Below, piece by piece: positions 1 to 25,664 of a DNA stretch of 64,000 bases. How positions within the stretch are numbered: position 1 is the stretch's first letter; each line of letters opens with the position of its first letter. The DNA is taken from assembly GCA_964016885.1 (NCBI GenBank), contig OZ024760.1:33108001-33172000 (forward strand), read 5' to 3'. The notes below the pieces were generated by a model. The model was not told where the DNA came from. It did not search any database and worked only from the letters and a program-made list of their open reading frames with translations. A program made the position numbers and the translations under genes. Source of the stretch: Eledone cirrhosa. Taxonomy: Eukaryota.

Positions 1-818
1 GGCTGTATGGTGCTTGCATACGAACAGCAATGTAGCATGGCAGTGAGACCTTGGTATTGTGTGCAGAGGATATACGCAGACTGGAGAGGAACGAAGCTTG
101 CATGCTCCGCTGGATGTGTAATAGTAATATACGTGAACGGCAAAGCATAAACGAACTAAGGGAAAAATTAGAAATAAGAGGGATCAGATGTTGTTTACTC
201 GAGAGAAGACTACATTGGTATGGTCACGTGATGCGCATGAAAGACGACAGCTGTATAAAAAAAGTGCAGGGCAATAAAAATAGACGGTAGCCACGGAGTA
301 GGCAGACCTAGAAAAACCTGGGACGAGCTGATAAACTCCGACCTCACACACTTACACCTCTCCAAGACAATGTCACTGGACCGAGACCTTTGGCGCTACA
401 CAGTAATAGAGAACACCCGCCTTACCTAAGTACAAAGTAAAACCTACTACAGTCAGTAGGCACCTCTAACAAAATACACCCCCGTCCCACTACCCCCACC
501 CCATCCACACCACCCCTTTCAATGTAAAGTTATGTTGGTACCACAACATCCAGCCCGAAACAAATGAGGTCGTGTAGGTGTCACGACAAAAAAACACACA
601 GTCCACGCTGTAATGTGGTCGTGTAGGTAACACGGTAAAAACCTCCCAGTTCCACACTGTAAATGTGGTTGGTGTTTGGAAGGGCATCCAGCTGTAGAAA
701 ACCCTCCAGACAGTCCTATGCGAGCAAGACAACCACTCTTGCCTCAAGTGGGAAAACTCCCGTCCAAACCCATGCAAGCGTGGAATATGGACGTTAATCG
801 ATGATGATGATGATGATG
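1..818 (+). mobile_element. RTE-clade non-LTR retrotransposon, decayed 3' fragment (copy A) with (GAT)n tail
   Basis: Translation across a frameshift gives the RTE ORF C-terminus ...HGSET-LCAEDIRRLERNEACMLRWMC...RRLHWYGHVMRM...GRPRKTWDELINSDL...DRDLWR. A 3' UTR follows, then (GAT)n at 800-818 running into a (TA)n tract. The left side is cut by the window edge. Confidence 0.85.
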
Positions 819-3237: not shown

Positions 3238-3357
3238 AGTTGTCGTCAGTGTGTGAAGGAGTACAAGTCTGTAGCAGGCTTCAAAAGCCAGATCTGAGGG
3301 TCACACATCTGAATCTGACAAGCGACTGCAATACTCTTAGCGTGAGTTTGCAGCCAT
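3238..3357 (+). mobile_element. Extreme 3' end of a second RTE-like LINE family (degenerate C2H2 finger plus terminal stem-loop)
   Basis: Reads [16 protein letters not shown], then (H)LRV(H) across small indels, a C-terminal C2H2-like motif of the kind seen in some RTE ORFs. A hairpin CTGCAA-T-ACTC/ttagcgt/GAGT-TTGCAG (3326-3353) sits just before the repeat tract. Confidence 0.55.
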
Positions 3358-4403
3358 GTGTATATATGTACATGTATGTGTATATATGTACATGTATGTG
3401 TGTATATAAGTACATGTATGTGTATATATGTACATGTATGTGTATATATGTACATGTATGTGTATATATGTACATGTATGTGTATATATGTACATGTATG
3501 TGTATATAAGTACATGTATGTGTATATATGTACATGTATGTGTATATATATACATGTATGTGTATATAAGTACATGTATGTGTATATATGTACATGTATG
3601 TGTATATATATACATGTATGTGTATATAAGTACATGTATGTGTATATATGTACATGTATGTGTATATATATACATGTATGTGTATATAAGTACATGTATG
3701 TGTATATATGTACATGTATGTGTATATAAGTACATGTATGTGTATATATGTACATGTATGTGTATATATGTACATGTATGTGTATATAAGTACATGTATG
3801 TGTATATATGTACATGTATGTGTATATATGTACATGTATGTGTATATAAGTACATGTATGTGTATATATATATACATGTATGTGTATATAAGTACATGTA
3901 TGTGTATATATGTACATGTATGTGTATATATATACATGTATGTGTATATAAAAACATGTATGTGTATATATGTACATGTATGTGTATATATGTACATGTA
4001 TGTGTATATAAGTACATGTATGTGTATATATGTACATGTATGTGTATATAAGTACATGTATGTGTATATATGTACATGTATGTGTATATATATACATGTA
4101 TGTGTATATAAGTACATGTATGTGTATATATGTACATGTATGTGTATATATATACATGTATGTGTATATAAGTACATGTATGTGTATATATGTACATGTA
4201 TGTGTATATAAGTACATGTATGTGTATATATGTACATGTATGTGTATATATGTACATGTATGTGTATATAAGTACATGTATGTGTATATATGTACATGTA
4301 TGTGTATAACTTTGAATAACTTTGAATAACTTTGAAATGTTTTGGCCAGTATTGGCCCAGGCCATGTCTAACTTAATAGCACCACCTGGCGAAGTCTTTC
4401 AAT

Positions 4404-7400
4404 TCAGGATTTGGGCACCATGGCCCATTCGAGAAGAGAATTACTGTTTGCGGAGACATATCCGGGTGTGGGTGGTTTGTCCGGGATTACTTGGAGGAAT
4501 TTGTCCAAAGACTTCTTGAATTTTGTGTGGTCAGTTTCTGTTTTGACGTGTCCTGGTGTGATGTTGAAGAGAGCAGGGCCGATTGAGGTGAAATAATTGT
4601 GCCGTATTGTTGTTATGAGTTGCGATTTAGATTTTTGAATGGGACGGATAGCACGGGGCCCAAGCCTTGGGTGTATCTTGAAGGCGATGCCAACATCATT
4701 TGGGCAGTGATGATGGAACATTTTCCACATCATGCAGATAATATAACGCTCACGGCGACGTTGGAGTGAGTAAAGTTTCAGGTTTTCCAATCGACCCCAG
4801 TAGTCAAGGTCTGACATGCCATCTATCTTTTTGGTGATTGCCCTTTGAGGAGCTTCAAGTTTCATGATACTTTGTTTCGTGTGGGGAGACCACAGTGGAC
4901 AACAGTATTCAAGGTGTGGGCGGGCGAAAGTAGAGAAGAGAAGGATAATGGTGCGGGAATCTCTCGACTGGAAGGTTCTGAGGATCCAGGAACACATTCT
5001 GCGGGCCATGTCAACTTTGCTGCTTATATGCGTGGTCCAGCTTATGTTGCTGTCCACGGTTACTCCCAAGTCTCTGATGTTGTTAGATGCCACGAGAGTT
5101 TCCCCGGAGGGAAGGGAGTACGGGAGTTTCAGAGCATCCTCTTTTCCAAAGTGGATCAGTTCGAATTTGTCTTCGTTCAATAACATGTTGTTCTTTTCTG
5201 CCCATTGGGTAACAGCCAGTAGGTCTGACTGAAGGCTTATCCGGTCATCCACGCCATTGATGACCTTTTGGAGCTTGGAATCATCAGCAAAAATTTTAAT
5301 GTTGCTGTGTTTGATGATGTCAGTGATGTCATTAATATAGATGATGAAGAGAAGTGGGCCCAACACAGTGCCTTGTGGGACTCCACTACTGACTTTGGCT
5401 GGGCTTGATTTGACTCCCTCAACTACAACATGTTGGGTTCTGTTTGACAGGAAGCTCTTGATCCACTGCAGCAGCTTTCCAGTGACACTAATATTGGACA
5501 GCTTTCTCAGTAGAATGTTATGATCAACCCTGTCAAAGGCCTTGCTGAAATCAAGGTAGATAACATCAGTGTTGGAACCCTCTCCCAAGGCTCTCAAAAT
5601 GTCATCAAAGTGATGCAGTAGTTGCGTCAGGCAATCCCTTCCATTACGGAATCCATGCTGGTTGGAGTTCAGCATATTGTTACTCTCAAGGAAGTGGGCC
5701 ATTCGCGATCTCACCACTCGCTCAAATACCTTAATGATATGAGAGGTGAGTGAGATTGGACGGTAATTCACGGCAAGGGATTTGTTTCCCTTTTTGAAAA
5801 CTGGGACAACAGACTGGGATAGAAGGTTTTCTGGCACATATCCAGCATCCAGTGAGTTCCGCCACAGATTGGCAAGAGGAGAAGCAAGTTGGTGTTGACA
5901 CGCCTTCAAGACACAAGCAGGGAACCTATCGGGACCTACTGCTGAATTATGCTTGATTTCCTTTATTGCCGCCAAGACATCAGGGGCGCCAAACGTTATG
6001 TCCGATAAGGTGTAATGGGGAGTAACATCGCCGATACAGCCCAGATCGGCCATATCAGGATTGCTGAAAACAGAGCAGTATTGTTTCTGCAGTATCTCAC
6101 CCATGGTTTTAGCATTGTCTTGAAGAGTGCCATTTTCATCAATTAGAGGGCCAACAGTAGAGCCAGTGATTTTGTGTTTTTTTGCAAATGAAAAGAAGAC
6201 TTTGGGATTGAGTTTGATCTTCTCAATGGCCCAGGCCTCTTCAGCTCTTCTCTGATTGTTGATGAGGGACATTATGTTGTTTTGGAGGTTATGTTTTTTA
6301 ATCTCTAGTGATGAAATGGCAGTCAAGTTGATGTGTTGCTGCTGACAGTATTTCAGCTTGTTGATTTTTTTGTTCGTTCTCTTAATTTTTCTGATGAGCG
6401 TTTTTCTATTTCTAGGGATTCTGCTCTTAGATTTGTTTATAGTTCTTAATGGGGTGTGTTTAGCACATATGTTTGTAACAGTGTCCACAAATGTCTGCCA
6501 GGACTTTTTGATGTTAGTGGGTGTATGAGTGTGCGTGAAGGACCAGTCGACATGTGCAAGATCATGACTGATCGCTTCCCAGTTTGCATTGTGGAAATCC
6601 ATAGCGTCAAACGGATGGACAGGAGAGATGACATTGGGTTTGTATATTGGACGGTGGAATCTCAGATCACAGAGAACCATGTCATGATCAGAGATAGAGT
6701 TTTCTCCACTGCAATATTGTGGATATTGTCAGTGTGATTGCTGAAAATTAAGTCTAGGACGTTTTTGTGGCACCTCGTTGGTTCGAGCACTAGTTGGGAT
6801 AGGAAGAAATCATCCATGAAGTCAAGAAGCGATTCCACAGCTTCCCTGTCAGAGGTTGAGGCAGAAGAACCTGGTGGCAGGGTGTTTGTGGACCAGTCAA
6901 CTCCGGGGAGGTTGAAGTCCCCCATCATTAAGATGTTGTCAGGGTGACACTCTTGGATGAAACACTTTATGCTGTTGAGGCATTCCTTGAAGCATGGTAC
7001 AGGCGTTTGGGGTGGCCTATAGAGCCCAACTACTAATAGGTTGTTGGTTTGACTGAATACAGTGACTGCCTCACAGTATCCATTAGTGAATATGTTCATA
7101 GCCTCTGTTGAGAAAGAATTATGGACATAAATGGCAGTTCCGCCCTTTCTTCTGCCAGCGCGATCAGCACGGATGGCTTTGAAATTTTTCACTTTCACCT
7201 CGGCTTCCAAGTGGAGGTTACTGAGATGGGTTTCAGTGAGGACGAAGAAAGGGATGTGGTTTGGATGGACATCAATCCAGTCCTCCAGGAATTTGATCTT
7301 CCATTTTTGAGTATTGGTGGAAGGGCTGATGCCTTGGGCGTTAAGCAAAAATGTAGAGGCGAGAGTGGATGGTTTTAATTGTTTTGGTGTGTTGTTAATT

Positions 7401-7516
7401 TGTTTGTTTGTTAATGGCAGCAATGGGAGTTTGTGCAGTGGGGTGATAGTGGAGGGTGGTGCTGGGTGATAGCTCGAATGTTTTTTTCCAGTTCTTTTGC
7501 CAGATTCATTATGGCT
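4404..7516 (-). pseudogene. LINE ORF2 (AP endonuclease + reverse transcriptase), copy 1, split by a 1-bp deletion near 6694
   Basis: APE motifs LLNAQG, LTETHL, GLYRPP, MGDFNLP, LDLIF, (S)DH. RT motifs YRPISLTS, QHGFR, YLDFSKAFDRVDH, SGVPQGTVLGPLLF, FADD. Copy 1 reads GATCAGAGATAGAG where copy 3 reads GATCAGAGAGTAGAG, which explains the two ORFs 6662-7423 and 4404-6680. Confidence 0.92.
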
Positions 7517-8540
7517 AAAAAAGAGGAAGAAGTTTCCTGTTTAGAAGACTGTTGGTGACTATGGTAGTGGTTATTTTTATGTAGGTTATGGTTTTTGTTT
7601 TTGCTTTTATTTTTAATTTTATTTTCATTTATCCGACGGGTCCCCGGGAGATGGGTAAAGGGACAATCCCGGTCTAAACACAATCTGTCTCGCAGGGAAA
7701 AACGGCAGATTTGTGGATTCCTTGTTTGAGTTATTGGTGGTTGTGTTGGTGTTAAATTAGAGTATGTATTATGGTGGTGGCTGTTTGTGGGGATAGATCG
7801 TTTTGTCCTAGGTAAATGGGTGAATTTGCAGCCACTATCCGTACATATTCTATAGCGTAGAGAGTAGCGGCAAATGATGGGGTTTCGAGTGGGTGGGTAT
7901 GTGGGTGTGGGTGTTGTGAGAGGTGTAGATGATGGTTTGGGTAGGATTTGACGACCTTTGTGGACTGTGGGAGGGAGAGTTCTTGTTCTGGTATTAGAAG
8001 GTAAATTCCTTGACATAGCAGTAGACAAAAATGTTGTAGTAGTAGTAGTAGTAGTAGGCAGAGATGTTGGCAGTGGTGATGATTGGACTGCTGGGCCAGA
8101 GAAAGGATGTGGCGTTTCATGCTGTGAGACAGAGGCTACTGGGGGGTCAATAGTTTCATTTAGTAGATCGGCCATTGTTGATGAATCAAGGAGTGGTTCA
8201 CACTGTTGTTGTCGTTGTCGTTGTTGTTGTTGTTGCTGTTGTTGATGTTGTTGTTGTAGCTGTTGTTGATGTTGTTGTTGTAGCTGTTGTTGTTGTTGCT
8301 GTTGTAGCTGCTGTTGTTGTTGTTGCTGCTGCTGGACAGCATTCGAAGAGAAAACACACCGTAGTTTATCCAAATGTTTATTGATTAATTTAAAAGCAAT
8401 TTCGATTTGCTTTAATTTATTTTGAATCTGTTGTTCAGATCGAGTTTTCAAAAATTGAACTGTACGTTTAGCAATGTCGTTCAGAGATGAAGCATGTATG
8501 TCTTCAGTTTGGGAAAGGCAATGCCATGTGTTTATTAGAA
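7411..8540 (-). CDS. LINE ORF1 (5'-truncated): coiled-coil-like segment, polyQ, Pro/Thr-rich linker, two CCCH zinc fingers
   Basis: Open frame from the 5' junction to TAA at 7413-7411. Q-rich tract ~8203-8335. CRYSLRYRICTDSGCKFTH (7872-7816) and CRFSLRDRLCLDRDCPFTH (7707-7651) are both C-x8-C-x4-C-x3-H. Confidence 0.8.
7516..7522 (-). promoter_or_regulatory. Candidate -1 ribosomal frameshift slippery site U-UUU-UUA linking ORF1 to ORF2
   Basis: ORF1 codons are TCT TTT TTA GCC. The -1 frame (AGC CAT AAT…) is open into the endonuclease. The previous stop in that frame is at 7543-7541, and there is no ATG before the APE catalytic motifs. Confidence 0.6.
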
Positions 8541-9452
8541 TGTACATGTACATGTATGTGTGTACATGTACATGTATATATGTACATGTATGTGTATATA
8601 AGTACATGTATGTGTATATATGTACATGTATGTGTATATATATACATGTATGTGTATATAAATACATGTATGTGTATATATGTAAATGTATGTGTATATA
8701 TGTACATGTATGTGTATATAAGTACATGTATGTGTATATATGTACATGTATGTGTATATATATACATGTATGTGTGTATATAAGTACATGTATGTGTATA
8801 TATGTACATGTATGTGTATATATGTACATGTATGTGTATATAAGTACATGTATGTGTATATATGTACATGTATGTGTATATATATACATGTATGTGTATA
8901 TAAGTACATGTATGTGTATATATGTACATGTATGTGTATATATATACATGTATGTGTATATAAGTACATGTATGTGTATATATGTACATGTATGTGTATA
9001 TAAGTACATGTATGTGTATATATGTACATGTATGTGTATATATGTACATGTATGTGTATATAAGTACATGTATGTGTATATATGTACATGTATGTGTATA
9101 TATATACATGTATGTGTATATAAGTACATGTATGTGTATATATGTACATGTATGTGTATATAAGTACATGTATGTGTATATATGTACATGTATGTGTATA
9201 TATGTACATGTATGTGTATATAAGTACATGTATGTGTATATATGTACATGTATGTGTATATATGTACATGTATGTGTATATAAGTACATGTATGTGTATA
9301 TATATACATGTATGTGTATATAAGTACATGTATGTGTATATATGTACATGTATGTGTATATATATACATGTATGTGTATATAAATACATGTATGTGTATA
9401 TATGTACATGTATGTGTATATATGTACATGTATGTGTATATAAGTACATATA

Positions 9453-10780
9453 TAACTTTGAATAACTTTGAAATGTTTTGGCCAGTATTGGCCCAGGCCA
9501 TGTCTAACTTAATAGCACCACCTGGCGAAGTCTTTCAATTCAGGATTTGGGCACCATGGCCCATTCTAGAAGAGAATTACTGTTTGCGGAGACATATCCG
9601 GGTGTGGGTGGTTTGTCCGGGATTACTTGGAGGAATTTGTCCAAAGACTTCTTGAATTTTGTGTGGTCAGTTTCTGTTTTGACATGTCCTGGTGTGATGT
9701 TGAAGAGAGCAGGGCCGATTGAGGTGAAATAATTGTGCCGTATTGTTGTTATGAGTTGCGATTTAGATTTTTGAATGGGACGGATAGCACGGGGCCCAAG
9801 CCTTGGGTGTATCTTGAAGGCGATGCCAACATCATTTGGGCAGTGATGATGGAACATTTTCCACATCATGCAGATAATATAACGCTCACGGCGACGTTGG
9901 AGTGAGTAAAGTTTCAGGTTTTCCAATCGACCCCAGTAGTCAAGGTCTGACATGCCATCTATCTTTTTCGTGATTGCCCTTTGAGGAGCTTCAAGTTTCA
10001 TGATACTTTGTTTCGTGTGGGGATACCACAGTGGACAACAGTATTCAAGGTGTGGTCGGGCAAAAGTAGAGAAGAGAAGGATAATGGTGCGGGAATCTCT
10101 CGACTGGAAGGTTCTGAGGATCCAGGAACACATTCTGCGGGCCATGTCAACTTTGCTGCTTATATGCGTGGTCCAGCTTATGTTGCTGTCCACGGTTACT
10201 CCCAAGTCTCTGATGTTGTTAGATGCCACGAGAGTTTCCCCGGAGGGAAGGGAGTACGGGAGTTTCAGAGCATCCTCTTTTCCAAAGTGGATCAGTTCGA
10301 ATTTGTCTTCGTTCAGTAACATGTTGTTCTTTTCTGCCCATTGGGTAACAGCCAGTAGGTCTGACTGAAGGCTTATCCGGTCATCCACGCCATTGATGAC
10401 CTTTTGGAGCTTGGAATCATCAGCGAAAATTTTAATGTTGCTGTGTTTGATGATGTCAGTGATGTCATTAATATAGATGATGAAGAGAAGTGGGCCCAAC
10501 ACAGTGCCTTGTGGGACCCCACTACTGACTTTGGCTGGGCTTGATTTGACTCCCTCAACTACAACATGTTGGGTTCTGTTTGACAGGAAGCTCTTGATCC
10601 ACTGCAGCAGATTTCCAGTGACACCAATATTGGACAGCTTTCTCAGTAGAATGTTATGATCAACCCTGTCAAAGGCCTTGCTGAAATCAAGGTAGATAAC
10701 ATCAGTGTTGGAACCCTCTCCCAAGGCTCTCAAAATGTCATCAAAGTGATGCAGTAGCTGCGTCAGGCAATCCCTTCCAT
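9453..10780 (-). mobile_element. Same CR1-like LINE, copy 2 (1.33 kb, 5'-truncated within RT)
   Basis: Near-identical to 4317-5644 with private substitutions (e.g. VTGNLL vs VTGKLL, WYPH vs WSPH). Two tail units. The 5' junction shows CAT microhomology to the satellite. Confidence 0.95.
9540..10780 (-). pseudogene. 5'-truncated ORF2 fragment (RT C-terminal half), copy 2
   Basis: GRDCLTQLL…YLDFSKAFD…PQGTVLGP…FADD…EWAMVPKS*, open but lacking the N-terminus. Confidence 0.9.
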
Positions 10781-11145
10781 GTATGTGTATATATGTACAT
10801 GTATGTGTATATAAGTACATGTATGTGTATATATGTACATGTATGTGTATATATATACATGTATGTGTATATAAGTACATGTATGTGTATATATGTACAT
10901 GTATGTGTATATATATACATGTATGTGTATATAAGTACATGTATGTGTATATATGTACATGTATGTGTATATAAGTACATGTATGTGTATATATGTACAT
11001 GTATGTGTATATATGTACATGTATGTGTATATAAGTACATGTATGTGTATATATGTACATATATGTGTATATATGTACATGTATGTGTATATAAGTACAT
11101 GTATGTGTATATATATATATACATGTATGTGTATATAAGTACATG

Positions 11146-13836
11146 TAACTTTGAATAACTTTGAAATGTTTTGGCCAGTATTGGCCCAGGCCATGTCTAA
11201 CTTAATAGCACCACCTGGCGAAGTCTTTCAATTCAGGATTTGGGTACCATGGCCCATTCGAGAAGAGAATTACTGTTTGCGGAGACATATCCGGGTGTGG
11301 GTGGTTTGTCCGGGATTACTTGGAGGAATTTGTCCAAAGACTTCTTGAATTTTGTGTGGTCAGTTTCTGTTTTGACGTGTCCTGGTGTGATGTTGAAGAG
11401 AGCAGGGCCGATTGAGGTGAAATAATTGTGCCGTATTGTTGTTATGAGTTGCGATTTAGATTTTTGAATGGGACGGATAGCACGGGGCCCAAGCCTTGGG
11501 TGTATCTTGAAGGCGATGCCAACATCATTTGGGCAGTGATGATGGAACATTTTCCACATCATGCAGATAATATAACGCTCACGGCGACGTTGGAGTGAGT
11601 AAAGTTTCAGGTTTTCCAATCGACCCCAGTAGTCAAGGTCTGACATGCCATCTATCTTTTTCGTGATTGCCCTTTGAGGAGCTTCAAGTTTCATGATACT
11701 TTGTTTCGTGTGGGGAGACCACAGTGGACAACAGTATTCAAGGTGTGGTCGGGCGAAAGTAGAGAAGAGAAGGATAATGGTGCGGGAATCTCTCGACTGG
11801 AAGGTTCTGAGGATCCAGGAACACATTCTGCGGGCCATGTCAACTTTGCTGCTTATATGCGTGGTCCAGCTTATGTTGCTGTCCACGGTTACTCCCAAGT
11901 CTCTGATGTTGTTAGATGCCACGAGAGTTTCCCCGGAGGGAAGGGAGTACGGGAGTTTCAGAGCATCCTCTTTTCCAAAGTGGATCAGTTCGAATTTGTC
12001 TTCGTTCAGTAACATGTTGTTCTTTTCTGCCCATTGGGTAACAGCCAGTAGGTCTGACTGAAGGCTTATCCGGTCATCCACGCCATTGATGACCTTTTGG
12101 AGCTTGGAATCATCAGCGAAAATTTTAATGTTGCTGTGTTTGATGATGTCAGTGATGTCATTAATATAGATGATGAAGAGAAGTGGGCCCAACACAGTGC
12201 CTTGTGGGACTCCACTACTGACTTTGGCTGGGCTTGATTTGACTCCCTCAACTACAACATGTTGGGTTCTGTTTGACAGGAAGCTCTTGATCCACTGCAG
12301 CAGCTTTCCAGTGACACCAATATTGGACAGCTTTCTCAGTAGAATGTTATGATCAACCCTGTCAAAGGCCTTGCTGAAATCAAGGTAGATAACATCAGTG
12401 TTGGAACCCTCTCCCAAGGCTCTCAAAATGTCATCAAAGTGATGCAGTAGTTGCGTCAGGCAATCCCTTCCATTACGGAATCCATGCTGGTTGGAGTTCA
12501 GCATATTGTTACTCTCAAGGAAGTGGGTCATTCGCGATCTCACCACTCGCTCAAATACCTTAATGATATGAGAGGTGAGTGAGATTGGACGGTAATTCAC
12601 GGCAAGGGATTTGTTTCCCTTTTTGAAAACTGGGACAACAGACTGGGATAGAAGGTTTTCTGGCACATATCCAGCATCCAGTGAGTTCCGCCACAGATTG
12701 GCAAGAGGAGAAGCAAGTTGGTGTTGACACGCCTTCAAGACACAAGCAGGGAACCTATCGGGACCTACTGCTGAATTATGCTTGATTTCCTTTATTGCCG
12801 CCAAGACATCAGGGGCGCCAAACGTTATGTCCGATAAGGTGTAATGGGGAGTAACATCGCCGATACAGCCCAGATCGGCCATATCAGGATTGCTGAAAAC
12901 AGAGCAGTATTGTTTCTGCAGTATCTCACCCATGGTTTTAGCATTGTCTTGAAGAGTGCCATTTTCATCAATTAGAGGGCCAACAGTAGAGCCAGTGATT
13001 TTGTGTTTTTTTGCAAATGAAAAGAACACTTTGGGATTGAGTTTGATCTTCTCAATGGCCCAGGCCTCTTCAGCTCTTCTCTGATTGTTGATGAGGGACA
13101 TTATGTTGTTTTGGAGGTTATGTTTTTTAATCTCTAGTGATGAAATGGCAGTCAAGTTGATGTGTTGCTGCTGACAGTATTTCAGCTTGTTGATTTTTTT
13201 GTTCGTTCTCTTAATTTTTCTGATGAGTGTTTTTCTATTTCTAGGGATTCTGCTCTTAGATTTGTTTATAGTTCTTAATGGGGTGTGTTTAGCACATATG
13301 TTTGTAACAGTGTCCACAAATGTCTGCCAGGACTTTTTGATGTTAGTGGGTGTATGAGTGTGCGTGAAGGACCAGTCGACATGTGCAAGATCATGACTGA
13401 TCGCTTCCCAGTTTGCATTGTGGAAATCCATAGCGTCAAACGGATGGACAGGAGAAATGACATTGGGTTTGTATATTGGACGGTGGAAACTCAGATCACA
13501 GAGAACCATGTCATGATCAGAGAGTAGAGTTTTCTCCACTGCAATATTGTGGATATTGTCAGTGTGATTGCTGAAAATTAAGTCTAGGACGTTTTTGTGG
13601 CACCTCGTTGGTTCGAGCACTAGTTGGGATAGGAAGAAATCATCCATGAAGTCAAGAAGCGATTCCACAGCTTCCCTGTCAGAGGTTGAGGCAGAAGAAC
13701 CTGGTGGCAGGGTGTTTGTGGACCAGTCAACTCCGGGGAGGTTGAAGTCCCCCATCATTAAGATGTTGTCAGGGTGACACTCTTGGATGAAACACTTTAT
13801 GCTGTTGAGGCATTCCTTGAAGCATGGTACAGGCGT
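11146..13836 (-). mobile_element. Same CR1-like LINE, copy 3 (2.69 kb, 5'-truncated within the endonuclease)
   Basis: Near-identical to 4317-7006. Two tail units. The 5' junction AGGCGT|ATAT shows GT microhomology to the satellite. Confidence 0.95.
11233..13836 (-). pseudogene. 5'-truncated but uninterrupted ORF2 (C-terminal half of APE + full RT), copy 3
   Basis: TPVPCFKECL…GDFNLP…LLSDHDMV…RT motifs…VPKS*, with no stops or frameshifts. Confidence 0.9.
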
Positions 13837-16800
13837 ATATATGTACATGTATGTGTTTATATTTACATGTATGTGTATATAAGTACATGCATGTGTATAT
13901 AAGTACATGTATCTGTATATATATACATATATCTGTATATATGTACATGTATGTGTATATACGTACATGCATGTGTATATAAGTACATGTATGTGTATAT
14001 ATGTACATGAATGTGTATATATGTACATGTATCTGTATATATGTACATGTATGTGTATATAAGTACATGTATGTGTATATATGTACATGTATGTGTATAT
14101 ATGTACATGTATGTGTATATATGTACATGTATGTGTATATAGGTACATGTGTGTGTATATATGTACATGTATGTGTATATAAGTACATGTATGTGTATAT
14201 ATGTACATGTATGTGTATATAAGTACATGTATGTGTATATATGTACATGTATGTGTATATATGTACATGTATGTGTATATATGTACATGTATGTGTATAT
14301 AAGTACATGTATGTGCATATATGTACATGTATGTGTATATATGTACATGTATGTGTATATATGTACATGTATGTGTATATATGTACATGTATCTGTATAT
14401 ATGTACATGTATGTGTGTATATAAGTACATGTATGTGTATATATGTACATGTATGTGTATATATGTACATGTATGTGTATATATGTACATGTATGTGTAT
14501 ATAGGTACATGTGTGTGTATATATGTACATGTATGTGTATATAAGTACATGTATGTGTATATATGTACATGTATGTGTATATATGTACATGTATGTGTAT
14601 ATATGTACATGTATGTGTATATAGGTACATGTATGTGCATATATGTACATGTATGTGTATATATGTACATGTATGTGTATATAAGTACATGTATGTGTAT
14701 ATATGTACATGTATGTGTATATAAATACATGTATGTGTATATAAGTACATGTATGTGTATATATGTACATGTATGTGTATATAAGTACATGTATGTGTAT
14801 ATATGTACATGTATGTGCATATATGTACATGTATGTGTATATATGTACATGTATGTGTATATAAGTACATGTATGTGTATATATGTACATGTTTGTGCAT
14901 ATATGTACATGTATGTGTATATATGTACATGTATGTGTATATATGTACATGTATGTGTATATATGTACATGCATTTGTATATATGTACATGTATGTGTAT
15001 ATAAGTACATGTATGTGTATATATGTACATGTATGTGTATATATGTACATGTATGTGTATATGTACATGTATGTGTATATAAGTACATGTATGTGTATAT
15101 AAGTACATGTATGTGTATATATGTACATGTATGTGTATATATGTACATGTATGTGCATATATGTACATGTATGTGTATATATGTACATGTATGTGTATAT
15201 AAGTACATGTATGTGTATATAAGTACATGTATGTGTATATATGTACATGTATGTGTATATATGTACATGTATGTGCATATATGTACATGTATGTGTATAT
15301 ATGTACATGTATGTGTATATACGTACATGTATGTGTATATATGTACATGTATGTGTATATATGTACATGTATTTGTATATATGTACATGTATGAGTATAT
15401 AAGTACATGTATGTGTATATATGTACATGTATCTGTATATATGTACATGTATGTGTATATAAGTACATGTATGTGTATATAAGTACATGTATGTGTGTAT
15501 ATGTACATGTATGTGTATATATGTACATGTATGTGTATATAAGTACATGTATGTGTATATATGTACATGTATGTGTATATATGTACATGTATGTGTATAT
15601 ATGTACATGTATGTGTATATAAGTACATATATGTGCATATATGTACATGTATGTGTATATATGTACATGTATGTGTATATATGTACATGTATTTGTATAT
15701 ATGTACATGTATGAGTATATAAGTACATGTATGTGTATATATGTACATGTATCTGTATATATGTACATGTATGTGTATATAAGTACATGTATGTGTATAT
15801 AAGTAAATGTATGAGTGTATATGTACATGTATGTGTATATATGTACATGTATGTGTATATATGTACATGTATGTGTATATATGTGCATGTATGAGTATAT
15901 ATGTACATGTATGTGTATATATGTATATGTATGTGTATATATGTACATGTATGTGTATATATGTACATGTATGTGTATATAGGTACATGTGTGTGTATAT
16001 ATGTACATGTATGTGTATATAAGTACATGTATGTGTATATATGTACATGTATGTGTATATAAGTACATGTATGTGTATATATGTACATGTATGTGTATAT
16101 ATGTACATGTATGTGTATATATGTACATGTATGTGTATATAAGTACATGTATGTGCATATATGTACATGTATGTGTATATATGTACATGTATGTGTATAT
16201 ATGTACATGTATGTGTATATATGTACATGTATCTGTATATATGTACATGTATGTGTGTATATAAGTACATGTATGTGTATATATGTACATGTATGTGTAT
16301 ATATGTACATGTATGTGTATATATGTACATGTATGTGTATATAGGTACATGTGTGTGTATATATGTACATGTATGTGTATATAAGTACATGTATGTGTAT
16401 ATATGTACATGTATGTGTATATATGTACATGTATGTGTATATATGTACATGTATGTGTATATAGGTACATGTATGTGCATATATGTACATGTATGTGTAT
16501 ATATGTACATGTATGTGTATATAAGTACATGTATGTGTATATATGTACATGTATGTGTATATAAATACATGTATGTGTATATAAGTACATGTATGTGTAT
16601 ATATGTACATGTATGTGTATATATGTACATGTATGTGTATATAAGTTCATGTATGTGTATATAAGTACATGTATGTGTATATATGTACATGTATGTGTAT
16701 ATATGTACATGTATGTGTATATATGTACATGTATGTGTATATAAGTACATGTATGTGTATATATGTACATGTATGTGTATATATGTACATGTATGTGTGT

Positions 16801-19800
16801 ATATGTACATGTATGTGTATATATGTACATGTATGTGTATATAAGTACATGTATGTGTATATATGTACATGTATGTGTATATATGTACATGTATGTGTAT
16901 ATATGTACATGTATGTGTATATAAGTAGATGTATGTGTATATATGTACATGTATGTGCATATATGTACATGTATGTGTATATATGTACATGTATGTGTAT
17001 ATAAGTACATGTATGTGTATATATGTACATGTTTGTGCCTATATGTACATGTATGTGTATATATGTACATGTATGTGTATATAAGTTCATGTATGTGTAT
17101 ATAAGTACATGTATGTGTATATATGTACATGTATGTGTATATATGTACATGTGTGTATATATGTACATGTATGTGTATATATGTACATGTATGTGTATAT
17201 ATGTACATGTATGTGTATATAAGTACATGTATGTGTATATATATGTACATGTATGTGTATATAAGTACATGTATGTGTATATATGTACATGTATGTGTAT
17301 ATATGTACATGTATGTGTTTATATTTACATGTATGTGTATATAAGTACATGCATGTGTATATAAGTACATGTATCTGTATATATATACATATATCTGTAT
17401 ATATGTACATGTATGTGTATATACGTACATGCATGTGTATATAAGTACATGTATGTGTATATATGTACATGAATGTGTATATATGTACATGTATCTGTAT
17501 ATATGTACATGTATGTGTATATAAGTACATGTATGTGTATATATGTACATGTATGTGTATATATGTACATGTATGTGTATATATGTACATGTATGTGTAT
17601 ATAGGTACATGTGTGTGTATATATGTACATGTATGTGTATATAAGTACATGTATGTGTATATATGTACATGTATGTGTATATAAGTACATGTATGTGTAT
17701 ATATGTACATGTATGTGTATATATGTACATGTATGTGTATATATGTACATGTATGTGTATATAAGTACATGTATGTGCATATATGTACATGTATGTGTAT
17801 ATATGTACATGTATGTGTATATATGTACATGTATGTGTATATATGTACATGTATCTGTATATATGTACATGTATGTGTGTATATAAGTACATGTATGTGT
17901 ATATATGTACATGTATGTGTATATATGTACATGTATGTGTATATATGTACATGTATGTGTATATAGGTACATGTGTGTGTATATATGTACATGTATGTGT
18001 ATATAAGTACATGTATGTGTATATATGTACATGTATGTGTATATATGTACATGTATGTGTATATATGTACATGTATGTGTATATAGGTACATGTATGTGC
18101 ATATATGTACATGTATGTGTATATATGTACATGTACGTGTATATAAGTACATGTATGTGTATATATGTACATGTATGTGTATATAAATACATGTATGTGT
18201 ATATAAGTACATGTATGTGTATATATGTACATGTATGTGTATATATGTACATGTATGTGTATATATGTACATGTATGTGTATATAAGTTCATGTATGTAT
18301 ATATAAGTACATGTATGTGTATATATGTACATGTATGTGTATATATGTACATGTATGTGTATATATGTACATGTATGTGTATATAAGTACATGTATGTGT
18401 ATATATGTACATGTATGTGTATATATGTACATGTATGTGTGTATATGTACATGTATGTGTATATATGTACATGTATGTGTATATAAGTACATGCATGTGT
18501 ATATATGTACATGTATGTGTATATATGTACATGTATGTGTATATATGTACATGTATGTGTATATAAGTACATGTATGTGTATATATGTACATGTATGTGC
18601 ATATATGTACATGTATGTGTATATATGTACATGTATGTGTATATAAGTACATGTATGTGTATATATGTACATGTTTGTGCATATATGTACATGTATGTGT
18701 ATATATGTACATGTATGTGTATATATGTACATGTATGTGTATATATGTACATGTATTTGTATATATGTACATGTATGAGTATATAAGTACATGTATGTGT
18801 ATATATGTACATGTATGTGTATATATGTACATGTATGTGTATATAAGTACATGTATGTGTATATATGTACATGTATGTGTATATATGTACATGTATGTGT
18901 ATATATGTACATGTATGTGTATATATGTACATGTATGTGTATATATGTACATGTACGTGTATATATGTACATGTATGTGTATATATGTACATGTAAGTGT
19001 ATATAAGTACATGTATGTGTATATATGTACATGTATGTGTATATATGTACATGTATGTGTTTATATTTACATGTATGTGTATATAAGTACATGCATGTGT
19101 ATATAAGTACATGTATCTGTATATATATACATATATCTGTATATATGTACATGTATGTGTATATATGTACATGTATGTGTATATATGTACATGTATGTGT
19201 ATATAAGTACATGTATGTGTATATATGTACATGTATGTGCATATATGTACATGTATGTGTATATATGTACATGTATGTGTATATAAGTACCTGTATGTGT
19301 ATATATGTACATGTTTGTGCATATATGTACATGTATGTGTATATATGTACATGTATGTGTATATATGTACATGTATGTGTATATATGTACATGCATTTGT
19401 ATATATGTACATGTATGTGTATATAAGTACATGTATGTGTATATATGTACATGTATGTGTATATATGTACATGTATGTGTATATGTACATGTATGTGTAT
19501 ATAAGTACATGTATGTGTATATAAGTACATGTATGTGTATATATGTACATGTATGTGTATATATGTACATGTATGTGCATATATGTACATGTATGTGTAT
19601 ATATGTACATGTATGTGTATATATGTACATGTATGTGTATATATGTACATGTATGTGTATATATGTACATGTATGTGTATATATGTACATGTATTTGTAT
19701 ATATGTACATGTATGAGTATATAAGTACATGTATGTGTATATATGTACATGTATCTGTATATATGTACATGTATGTGTATATAAGTACATGTATGTGTAT

Positions 19801-22800
19801 ATAAGTACATGTATGTGTGTATATGTACATGTATGTGTATATATGTACATGTATTTGTATATATGTACATGTATGAGTATATAAGTACATGTATGTGTAT
19901 ATATGTACATGTATCTGTATATATGTACATGTATGAGTATATAAGTACATGTATGTGTATATATGTACATGTATCTGTATATATGTACATGTATGTGTAT
20001 ATAAGTACATGTATGTGTATATAAGTACATGTATGTGTGTATATGTACATGTATGTGTATATATGTACATGTATGTGTATATATGTACATGTATGTGTAT
20101 ATATGTACATGTATGAGTATATATGTACATGTATGTGTATATATGTATATGTATGTGTATATATGTACATGTATGTGTATATATGTACATGTATGTGTAT
20201 ATAGGTACATGTGTGTGTATATATGTACATGTATGTGTATATAAGTACATGTATGTGTATATATGTACATGTATGTGTATATATGTACATGTATGTGTAT
20301 ATAAGTACATGTATGTGTATATAGGTACATGTATGTGCATATATGTACATGTATGTGTATATATGTACATGTATGTGTATATAAGTACATGTGTGTGTAT
20401 ATATGTACATGTATGTGTATATAAGTACATGTATGTGTATATATGTACATGTATGTGTATATATGTACATGTATGTGTATATATGTACATGTATGTGTAT
20501 ATAAGTACATGTATGTGCATATATGTACATGTATGTGTATATATGTACATGTATGTGTATATATGTACATGTATGTGTATATATGTACATGTATCTGTAT
20601 ATATGTACATGTATGTGTGTATATAAGTACATGTATGTGTATATATGTACATGTATGTGTATATATGTACATGTATGTGTATATATGTACATGTATGTGT
20701 ATATAGGTACATGTGTGTGTATATATGTACATGTATGTGTATATAAGTACATGTATGTGTATATATGTACATGTATGTGTATATATGTACATGTATGTGT
20801 ATATATGTACATGTATGTGTATATAGGTACATGTATGTGCATATATGTACATGTATGTGTATATATGTACATGTATGTGTATATAAGTACATGTATGTGT
20901 ATATATGTACATGTATGTGTATATAAATACATGTATGTGTATATAAGTACATGTATGTGTATATATGTACATGTATGTGTATATATGTACATGTATGTGT
21001 ATATAAGTTCATGTATGTGTATATAAGTACATGTATGTGTATATATGTACATGTATGTGTTTATATGTACATGTATGTGTATATATGTACATGTATGTGT
21101 ATATAAGTACATGTATGTGTATATATGTACATGTATGTGTATATATGTACATGTATGTGTGTATATGTACATGTATGTGTATATATGTACATGTATGTGT
21201 ATATAAGTACATGTATGTGTATATATGTACATGTATGTGTATATATGTACATGTATGTGTATATATGTACATGTATGTGTATATAAGTAGATGTATGTGT
21301 ATATAAGTACATGTATGTGTATATATGTACATGTATGTGTATATAAGTACATGTATGTGTATATATGTACATGTATGTGTATATATGTACATGTATGTGT
21401 ATATAAGTTCATGTATGTGTATATAAGTACATGTATGTGTATATATGTACATGTATGTGTATATATGTACATGTATGTGTATATATGTACATGTATGTGT
21501 ATATAAGTACATGTATGTGTATATATGTACATGTATGTGTATATATGTACATGTATGTGTGTATATGTACATGTATGTGTATATATGTACATGTATGTGT
21601 ATATAAGTACATGTATGTGTATATATGTACATGTACGTGTATATATGTACATGTATGTGTATATATGTACATGTATGTGTATATATGTACATGTATGTGT
21701 ATATATGTACATGTATGTGTATATATGTACATGTATGTGTATATAAGTACATGTATGTGTATATATATGTACATGTATGTGTATATAAGTACATGTATGT
21801 GTATATATGTACATGTATGTGTATATATGTACATGTATGTGTTTATATTTACATGTATGTGTATATAAGTACATGCATGTGTATATAAGTACATGTATCT
21901 GTATATATATACATATATCTGTACATATGTACATGTATGTGTATATACGAACATGCATGTGTATATAAGTACATGTATGTGTATATATGTACATGAATGT
22001 GTATATATGTACATGTATCTGTATATATGTACATGTATGTGTATATAAGTACATGTATGTGTATATATGTACATGTATGTGTATATATGTACATGTATGT
22101 GTATATATGTACATGTATGTGTATATAGGTACATGTGTGTGTATATATGTACATGTATGTGTATATAAGTACATGTATGTGTATATATGTACATGTATGT
22201 GTATATAAGTACATGTATGTGTATATATGTACATGTATGTGTATATATGTACATGTATGTGTATATATGTACATGTATGTGTATATAAGTACATGTATGT
22301 GCATATATGTACATGTATGTGTATATATGTACATGTATGTGTATATATGTACATGTATGTGTATATATGTACATGTATGTGTATATATGTACATGTATGT
22401 GTATATAGGTACATGTATGTGCATATATGTACATGTATGTGTATATATGTACATGTATGTGTATATAAGTACATGTATGTGTATATATGTACATGTATGT
22501 GTATATAAATACATGTATGTGTATATAAGTACATGTATGTGTATATATGTCCATGTATGTGTATATATGTACATGTATGTGTATATATGTACATGTATGT
22601 GTATATAAGTTCATGTATGTGTATATAAGTACATGTATGTGTATATATGTACATGTATGTGTATATATGTACATGTATGTGTATATATGTACATGTATGT
22701 GTATATAAGTACATGTATGTGTATATATGTACATGTATGTGTGTATATGTACATGTATGTGTATATATGTACATGTATGTGTATATAAGTACATGTATGT

Positions 22801-24906
22801 GTATATATGTACATGTATGTGTATATATGTACATGTATGTGTATATATGTACATGTATGTGTATATAAGTACATGTATGTGTATATATGTACATGTATGT
22901 GCATATATGTACATGTATGTGTATATATGTACATGTATGTGTATATAAGTACATGTATGTGTATATATGTACATGTTTGTGCATATATGTACATGTATGT
23001 GTATATATGTACATGTATGTGTATATATGTACATGTATGTTTATATATGTACATGTATTTGTATATATGTACATGTATGAGTATATAAGTACATGTATGT
23101 GTATATATGTACATGTATGTGTATATATGTACATGTATGTGTATATAAGTACATGTATGTGTATATATGTACATGTATGTGTATATATGTACATGTATGT
23201 GTATATATGTACATGTATGTGTATATATGTACATGTATGTGTATATATGTACATGTACGTGTATATATGTACATGTATGTGTATATATGTACATGTATGT
23301 GTATATAAGTACATGTATGTGTATATATGTACATGTATGTGTATATATGTACATGTATGTGTTTATATTTACATGTATGTGTATATAAGTACATGCATGT
23401 GTATATAAGTACATGTATCTGTATATATATACATATATCTGTATATATGTACATGTATGTGTATATATGTACATGTATGTGTATATATGTACATGTATGT
23501 GTATATAAGTACATGTATGTGTATATATGTACATGTATGTGCATATATGTACATGTATGTGTATATATGTACATGTATGTGTATATAAGTACATGTATGT
23601 GTATATATGTACATGTTTGTGCATATATGTACATGTATGTGTATATATGTACATGTATGTGTATATATGTACATGTATGTGTATATATGTACATGCATTT
23701 GTATATATGTACATGTATGTGTATATAAGTACATGTATGTGTATATATGTACATGTATGTGTATATATGTACATGTATGTGTATATGTACATGTATGTGT
23801 ATATAAGTACATGTATGTGTATATAAGTACATGTATGTGTATATATGTACATGTATGTGTATATATGTACATGTATGTGCATATATGTACATGTATGTGT
23901 ATATATGTACATGTATGTGTATATATGTACATGTATGTGTATATATGTACATGTATGTGTATATATGTACATGTATGTGTATATATGTACATGTATTTGT
24001 ATATATGTACATGTATGAGTATATAAGTACATGTATGTGTATATATGTACATGTATCTGTATATATGTACATGTATGTGTATATAAGTACATGTATGTGT
24101 ATATAAGTACATGTATGTGTGTATATGTACATGTATGTGTATATATGTACATGTATGTGTATATAAGTACATGTATGTGTATATATGTACATGTATGTGT
24201 ATATATGTACATGTATGTGTATATATGTACATGTATGTGTATATAAGTACATATATGTGCATATATGTACATGTATGTGTATATATGTACATGTATGTGT
24301 ATATATGTACATGTATTTGTATATATGTACATGTATGAGTATATAAGTACATGTATGTGTATATATGTACATGTATCTGTATATATGTACATGTATGTGT
24401 ATATAAGTACATGTATGTGTATATAAGTACATGTATGTGTGTATATGTACATGTATGTGTATATATGTACATGTATGTGTATATATGTACATGTATGTGT
24501 ATATATGTACATGTATGAGTATATATGTACATGTATGTGTATATATGTATATGTATGTGTATATATGTACATGTATGTGTATATATGTACATGTATCTGT
24601 ATATATGTACATGTATCTGTATATATGTACATGTATGTGTATATATGTACATGTATGTGTATATATGTACATGTATCTGTATATATGTACATGTATGTGT
24701 ATATATGTACATGTATGTGCATATATGTACATGTATGTATATATATGTACATGTATGTGTATATATGTACATGTATGTGTATATATGTACATGTATGTGT
24801 GTATATGTACATGTACATGTATGTGTATATATGTACATGTATGTGTATATATGTACATATGTATACGTATGTGCATATATGTGCATATATGTACATATAT
24901 ATGCAT

Positions 24907-25664
24907 ATCATCATCATCATCTTCTTTTAAAGTATATTTTCCTCATTAGCATGGGTTAGATGGGGGTTGTCCCACTTAAGGCAAGTTTGGTCGGTTTTCC
25001 ATGGCTGGATACCCTTCCTAACACCAACCACATTTACAGTGTGGAACTGGGAACTTTTTACCGTGTTACCTACACGACCACATTACAGCGTGGACTGTGT
25101 GTTTTTTTGTCTGACACCTACACGATCTTGATCTCCGTATCTCACTTATTTGGACTGGATGTGGTGGTACCAACTTTACAGAGAGAGGGTTTTGTAGGTG
25201 GGAGGATGTAGTAGGGGTAGTGGATTGGGGTGATTATTTGGTTAAGAGGTGCCTACTGACTGTAGGTTTCGCTTTGTTCATAGGCAAGGCAGGTGTTCTG
25301 TATTACTGCGTAGCGCCAAAGATCTCGGTCCAGTGACATTGTCTTAGAGAGGTGCAAGTGTGTGAGGTCGGAATTTATCAGATCGTCCCAGGTTTCTCTG
25401 GGTCTACCTACTCCGTAACTACCATCAATTTTGATCGCCCTGCACTTTTTTATACAGCTGTCGTCTTTCATGGGCATCACGTGACCATACCAAAGTAGTC
25501 TTCTCTCAAGTAAACAACATCTGTTCCCTCTTATTCGTAATTTCTCACTTAGTTCATTTATGCTTTGCCGTTCACGTATATTACTATTACACATCCAGCG
25601 GAGCATGCAAGTTTCGTTCCTCTCCAGCCTGCGCAGGTCCTCTGCACACAATGCCCAGGTCTCA
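24907..25664 (-). mobile_element. RTE-clade LINE 3' fragment (copy C), same family as 1-818, inverted
   Basis: ETWALCAEDLRRLERNETCMLRWMCNSNIRERQS…LWYGHVM…GRPRETWDDLINSDL… The (GAT)n tail is seen as (ATC)n at 24907-24921 and abuts the 20-bp satellite. Confidence 0.88.

Follow-up and report, generated by a model that had tools for sequence, protein, structure and literature searches.

In Eledone cirrhosa, a young CR1-like LINE family occupies long alternating TA-rich repeats almost exclusively

Three LINE copies crowded into a 20-bp satellite of Eledone cirrhosa belong to a family whose copies, across the genome, are nearly all confined to long, alternating TA-rich repeats. The original prediction described them as insertions of a satellite-homing CR1-like retrotransposon; we reject satellite homing and find genome-wide targeting of long TA arrays instead. 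A habit of this kind is known from other retrotransposon groups, and the literature we searched did not yield it for CR1-like LINEs. With about 3,000 very young copies, 97% of them TA-flanked, and with intact members, the family is a test case for targeting by APE elements. It poses the question of whether such an element responds to sequence, to the shape of the DNA or to breaks made by the host, and it bears on how microsatellite-rich genomes absorb retroelements.

Results

Three independent insertions in one satellite

The window, meaning the whole stretch analysed, comprises 64,000 nucleotides (contig OZ024760.1, positions 33,108,001 to 33,172,000). A BLAST search of copy 1 against it returned exactly three LINE copies, all on the minus strand, so the prediction of three near-identical minus-strand copies within about 2.2 kb of satellite was right, coordinates included. 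The copies and the satellite around them are arranged as follows.

3356-4307, no strand: 20-bp satellite, proximal piece A; 96% purine-pyrimidine alternating; (TA)4 at 15.8 per kb
4308-8543, minus strand: LINE copy 1, near full length (BLAST and junction letters)
4308-4336, minus strand: 3' tail of copy 1, three 10-nt repeat units (from the sequence), with a short hairpin-forming stretch immediately upstream
4404-6728, minus strand: 3' part of copy 1 ORF2, reverse transcriptase (PF00078, E = 4e-31)
6662-7540, minus strand: 5' part of copy 1 ORF2, APE endonuclease (PF14529, E = 1.5e-11)
7411-8540, minus strand: copy 1 ORF1, 5'-truncated (open reading frame)
8544-9453, no strand: 20-bp satellite, proximal piece B; (TA)4 at 15.3 per kb
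9454-10780, minus strand: LINE copy 2, 1.3 kb, 5'-truncated, of a subfamily other than that of copies 1 and 3
10781-11146, no strand: 20-bp satellite, proximal piece C; (TA)4 at 21.8 per kb; monomer order carries on from piece B
11147-13836, minus strand: LINE copy 3, 2.7 kb, 5'-truncated, with an open ORF2 remnant (BLAST and junction letters)
13837-24908, no strand: 20-bp satellite, distal 11 kb; monomers more diverse; (TA)4 at 1.3 per kb; no LINE copy

Copy 1 is non-autonomous because its 5' UTR is missing, its ORF1 lacks the initial ~17 codons and a 1-nt deletion at 6694/6695 breaks ORF2 in two; copies 2 and 3, both truncated, are non-autonomous as well. Identity to copy 1 is 99.6% for copy 3 and 99.1% for copy 2. 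The junction letters bear out that each copy has its own 5' truncation, its own 3' junction and its own tail, of three, two and two 10-nt units in copies 1, 2 and 3. At their differing 5' ends, the copies have 2-3 nt of microhomology to the satellite, and each 3' junction lies at another position in the monomer; filler monomers occur at the 5' junction of copy 1. BLAST also agrees with the reported absence of copies from the distal 11 kb, the 48-bp array, the 32-kb 40-bp satellite and the flanks; searching the 10 kb that flank the window on each side revealed none either.

We found that the three copies are independent insertions, as had been proposed. When 34 copies are aligned over 1.3 kb, no minor allele is common to any two of the window copies; copy 1 carries five private alleles, copy 2 three and copy 3 one, and copy 2 additionally carries two subfamily alleles that are present in 9 and 11 copies elsewhere. 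The satellite itself offers a second line of evidence. The 13 + 13 monomers around copy 2 form a 26-monomer word that is found unbroken in piece A, and copy 2 therefore split a pre-existing higher-order array. The same monomer-order test matches the flanks of copy 1 over 7 monomers only and finds no match across copy 3, which sits where the proximal sub-array gives way to the distal one and the array type changes. Because no minor allele is common to the copies, and copy 2 both belongs to another subfamily and splits an array, tandem duplication or assembly expansion appears unlikely as the origin of the triple.

A young LINE family with CR1-like anatomy

Counting exact sequence patterns across the 3.0-Gb genome, we obtained 2,953 matches to the 28-nt 3' end versus 25 to a 26-nt motif at the start of ORF1. 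Among 18 long copies fetched, 10 have a common 5' end (4.6-5.2 kb) and both ORFs are open in five; 16 of the 18, anchored near the 5' part, extend to the 3' end. The first 30 copies have a median identity of 99.3%. With such identity and with intact-ORF members, the family is what it had been taken for, a young APE-RT LINE, of roughly 3,000 copies.

A fixed 3' end with a tail, variable 5' truncation and the lack of LTRs identify an APE-type LINE. Its ORF2 encodes an N-terminal APE domain (PF14529/PF03372) followed by RT (PF00078), and its best solved relative is human L1 ORF2p (E = 6e-22). It also shows APE-type motifs, and its RT and C-terminal motifs look CR1-like. All 44 copies examined end in one to three units of a 10-nt tail, which follows a 3' hairpin and contains no poly-A. 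Tandem-repeat tails behind a 3' hairpin also occur in L2 and other elements and are not diagnostic for CR1. The anatomy of the element looks CR1-like, CR1 being here a label taken from anatomy. Among the 120 homologues listed, 119 have no informative name; one is an uncharacterised ctenophore protein (41% identity). Intact ORF1 has 399 aa, with a putative Myb/SANT-like N-terminus, poly-Q and two putative CCCH-like fingers.

Several members showed further peculiarities. At L066:4073-4199 (minus strand), ORF2 spans 1,045 codons from stop to stop; it begins within the last part of ORF1, and no ATG precedes its endonuclease domain. The overlap contains T7 and A7 runs, and a frameshift or non-ATG start for ORF2 is possible from this arrangement. 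In three full-length copies (L073, L074 and L075), the 5' junction contains either a duplication of the 5' end or a piece copied from the tail, which suggests template jumps. Run X6, labelled as another organism, contains a low-depth contig with 9 differences in about 1.9 kb from window 4337-6223, and run X2 a diverged high-copy relative; these matches are not evidence of transfer. Contigs from four sequencing runs yielded neither usable flanks nor long reads spanning the locus.

Copies lie at long alternating arrays genome-wide

On the strand where our search yields one match per copy, 1,402 of 1,444 copies (97%) carry TATATA no more than 30 nt from their 3' end. The corresponding background is 13.6% of positions (95% interval 10-17.5%; 39 evenly placed 10-kb stretches, 390 kb). 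Random TA sites (33%) and random TATA sites (77%) are fairer yardsticks because as many as three letters of the TATATA may come from the tail; for the same reason, the 97% overstates the target's share.

Array length was then scored for 44 copies against the 390-kb background. On contig 1, an alternating run of at least 50 nt adjoins 27 of the first 30 copies. Of 17 long copies, three without the exact 3' motif were set aside, and 11 of the other 14 adjoin such a run. Combined, 38 of 44 copies lie at purine-pyrimidine alternating runs of this length, versus 51% of random TATATA sites (40-59%; p = 1e-4 against the upper bound); six lie at shorter runs (7-42 nt). On both measures, the predicted preference for alternating (TA/TG)n repeats held. 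Nearly all copies fall into one repeat class, as they do in target-specific non-LTR elements, whether judged by TATATA (1,402/1,444) or by alternating runs of at least 20 nt (42/44).

The arrays are older than the insertions. Most copies with both junctions have TA repeats on both sides, and the two flanks are alike in their interruption pattern (28 copies, mean cosine 0.51, 0/5,000 permutations). Arrays also turn over after insertion, as seen from the 6 of 28 copies whose flanks have no pattern in common and from the array change at copy 3. At each of the 44 junctions, the array carries on in phase with the tail. Its first letter could come from either tail or target, which hides the exact cut, and no target-site duplication is readable inside these arrays.

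The 20-bp satellite holds at most three of the 2,953 copies. With 2,950 3' ends elsewhere and the satellite dimer present at this locus only (62 of 62 genome matches to the exact pattern), an element homing to the 20-bp satellite fails on enrichment, and we dropped this candidate.

The satellite as a local TA-derived array

The satellite between and around the copies consists of pieces of 952, about 910 and 366 bp (2,231 bp in total), and exact stretches of 280-296 bp are common to pieces A, B and C. Its 20-mer is itself an alternating array (96% purine-pyrimidine), and the density of (TA)4 is 12-17 times higher in the occupied 2.2 kb than in the empty 11 kb. The 20-bp satellite is one local TA-derived alternating array, and the insertions occupy the portion of it where TA runs are densest. 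The window junctions themselves lie outside the TA-rich monomers, at a distance of about 1, 3 and 7 monomers. Neither the 40-bp nor the 48-bp array contains TATATA, which explains why no LINE copies occur there. The safe-harbour role given to the satellite in the original prediction is a putative evolutionary reading.

The surroundings of the copies hold other repeats. The distal satellite (13837-24908) is built of multi-kb higher-order repeats, with a marker monomer at 13855, 17317, 19059, 21841 and 23361; the switch of array type coincides exactly with copy 3. Three RTE-like LINE ends with (GAT)n tails (window 1-817, 1926-2537 and 24909-25664) each adjoin TA-type repeats, and the last of them bounds the 20-bp satellite distally. 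Between a TA array and the start of the satellite lies a 117-bp non-repeat piece (3239-3355), which has no match in the loci compared and translates to a C2H2-like end as in RTE ORFs. The 40-bp satellite (31813-64000) extends past the window, with 91 marker matches in the next 10 kb.

Clustering and orientation

At the density of the family, 13.3 kb of TA-type DNA should hold 0.16-0.21 copies, and the probability of at least three is 0.0006-0.0014. Genome-wide, we expect about 11-19 triples within 13 kb and 0.3-0.6 within a 2.2-kb span. Local hot spots are general for the family because the excess of close pairs also appears on contig 1, where 8 of 99 gaps are under 17 kb versus 1.04 expected (an 8-fold excess). 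Co-orientation, seen in the three window copies, is not a rule of the family: relative to array polarity, orientations are 14 versus 17 (37 alternating flanks). Among close pairs, 7 of 8 less than 17 kb apart and 2 of 9 at 17-50 kb have the same orientation, with cut-offs set post hoc, and we do not count this as evidence.

Other families in the same genome

An RTE family with 18,320 matches is likewise TA-enriched (21/30); 7 of 30 copies lie at long runs and 16 of 30 at runs under 20 nt. This family is older (94.7% versus 99.3% identity), and we dropped it as a control for strictness, the comparison being confounded by age. A second young CR1-like family (3,633 matches) has about 38% amino acid identity to the window family and a different 8-nt tail. 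Of its ORF2-confirmed copies, 11 of 14 lie at runs of at least 50 nt, and so do 3 of its 16 other matches; tail trimming was rough in this comparison. The TA-array habit is therefore not peculiar to the window LINE family and is common to other elements here, since the second CR1-like family behaves alike. The member of that family at L185:3092-6966 has a CCCH-like finger in ORF1, and 16 of 30 matches to its 3' motif are without ORF2 similarity; these 16 may be SINEs or short copies.

Discussion

Insertion probably proceeds by target-primed reverse transcription from nicks inside long TA arrays, with 1-3 nt of tail pairing. The element's own endonuclease would nick inside a long TA-rich alternating array, and long arrays would be favoured because of how they are shaped or how open they are (as hairpins or as unwound or nucleosome-poor DNA), not through reading of the 20-mer. 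A pyrimidine-ending primer could then pair with the U/A end of the tail over 1-3 bases, and reverse transcription would be primed from the nicked array DNA.

A rather doubtful alternative is that the element encodes recognition of (TA)n, read by the Myb/SANT-like domain of ORF1 or by an endonuclease loop, which would make the family a microsatellite-specific lineage like those of R1 and Tx1. The 97% of TA-flanked copies and the bias to long arrays are consistent with it. ORF1 matches PF13837 with E = 1e-4, but at 23 versus 27 bits this lies below the Pfam cut-off, as do the matches to CCCH-like fingers. One broken copy of the second family has a faint PF13837 match (E = 0.037), and Myb-like clusters occur among Atlas matches (score 0.83), a lead only. 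The single-sequence model of ORF1 (pTM 0.38) did not confirm a Myb fold: Foldseek gave no match, and VIA structure matches were to coiled coils only (best Z 5.8). Searching Pfam with ORF1 returned no match of RRM/CCHC, PHD, esterase or L1-like type, and searching for homologues of its N-terminus gave no match among 8 candidates. Separately, Z-DNA-binding domains were considered and rejected, as the matches to PDB sequences were at chance level (E = 0.5-0.8). Dedicated recognition also has to accommodate insertions that tolerate C, G and A interruptions and a 20-mer containing C and G, as well as an unrelated RTE family that is TA-enriched too (21/30).

It is unlikely that TA arrays broken or nicked by the host simply prime any active retroelement, whose own endonuclease would then not be needed. 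All three families examined are TA-enriched, and filler and duplicated ends at some 5' junctions would fit such capture, but 16 of 18 long copies reach the 3' end and tailed junctions run in phase, which is ordinary target-primed insertion, and 16 of 30 RTE copies lie at alternating runs under 20 nt. Very improbable, in our judgement, is that copies landed broadly and persisted only in TA arrays, or that the arrays grew later. This reading could draw on the differing flank patterns of some copies and on the change of array type at copy 3. It conflicts with copies that differ by 0-2 bases per 1.3 kb and already sit in arrays hundreds of bases long, and with copy 2, which splits a 26-monomer word that is intact nearby; it also seems implausible that a repeat-rich genome of 3 Gb would have been purged of almost every insertion outside TA DNA. 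Homing to the 20-bp satellite, or a triple made by duplication or assembly error, has almost nothing left to recommend it: three copies in 2.2 kb are rare even for a TA-targeter (0.3-0.6 expected genome-wide) and pieces A, B and C have exact 280-296 bp stretches in common, but 2,950 of 2,953 copies lie elsewhere, the window copies have no common minor allele, copy 2 comes from another subfamily, and contig 1 likewise has more close pairs than expected (8 versus 1.04).

We compared the family with known systems. Our literature search, with Repbase Reports, most subscription journals and supplements outside its reach, found no report of a (TA)n-targeting CR1, and the accessible parts of PMC4120745, PMC10294476, PMC5786205 and PMC13708176 mention none. 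The words 'Myb', 'SANT' and 'CCCH' have 0 occurrences in the main text of the paper that describes the ORF1 types of CR1 (Metcalfe and Casane 2014, PMC4120745). In the portions available, bird CR1 is reported with a short TTCT insertion bias only (PMC2612034), and young CR1 families of Octopus vulgaris are described with no remark on targets (PMC13282606). The window family resembles CR1-group LINEs (Jockey superfamily) in its two ORFs, APE and RT domains, short 3' UTR with a hairpin, tandem-repeat tail and frequent 5' truncation. It differs from them in its near-exclusive TA-array flanks and in an ORF1 with a Myb-like start and CCCH-like fingers.

The RTE-clade Tn-TA signature, as far as the available text describes it, is a short motif with readable duplications, and the tail repeat has been proposed to influence priming (PMC13295347). 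Both systems have TA at the insertion point, whereas the window family uses long alternating arrays in which no duplication is readable.

Microsatellites are targets in other clades. According to the sections available, R1-clade Mino inserts at AC repeats (PMC3124438), Togen inserts at (TG)n and HERO families also target microsatellites (PMC4640811); the latter source gives only early-branched RLE, Tx1 and R1 as the main target-specific groups, with CR1 not among them. The window family is like these microsatellite-targeting R1, Tx1 and RLE elements in inserting into multicopy simple repeats. Waldo, Kibi, Koshi and Dong are further microsatellite-targeting non-LTR elements. By architecture, the window family would belong to another clade, and unlike these elements it is TA-type, not AC/TG, tolerates interruptions and prefers long arrays. 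We offer only tentatively the idea that a branch of the CR1 lineage, present in at least two families about 38% alike, has evolved its own recognition of long (TA)n, either through a Myb/SANT-like domain captured into ORF1 or through an endonuclease that senses DNA shape, and would represent a further independent origin of microsatellite targeting beside R1 and Tx1.
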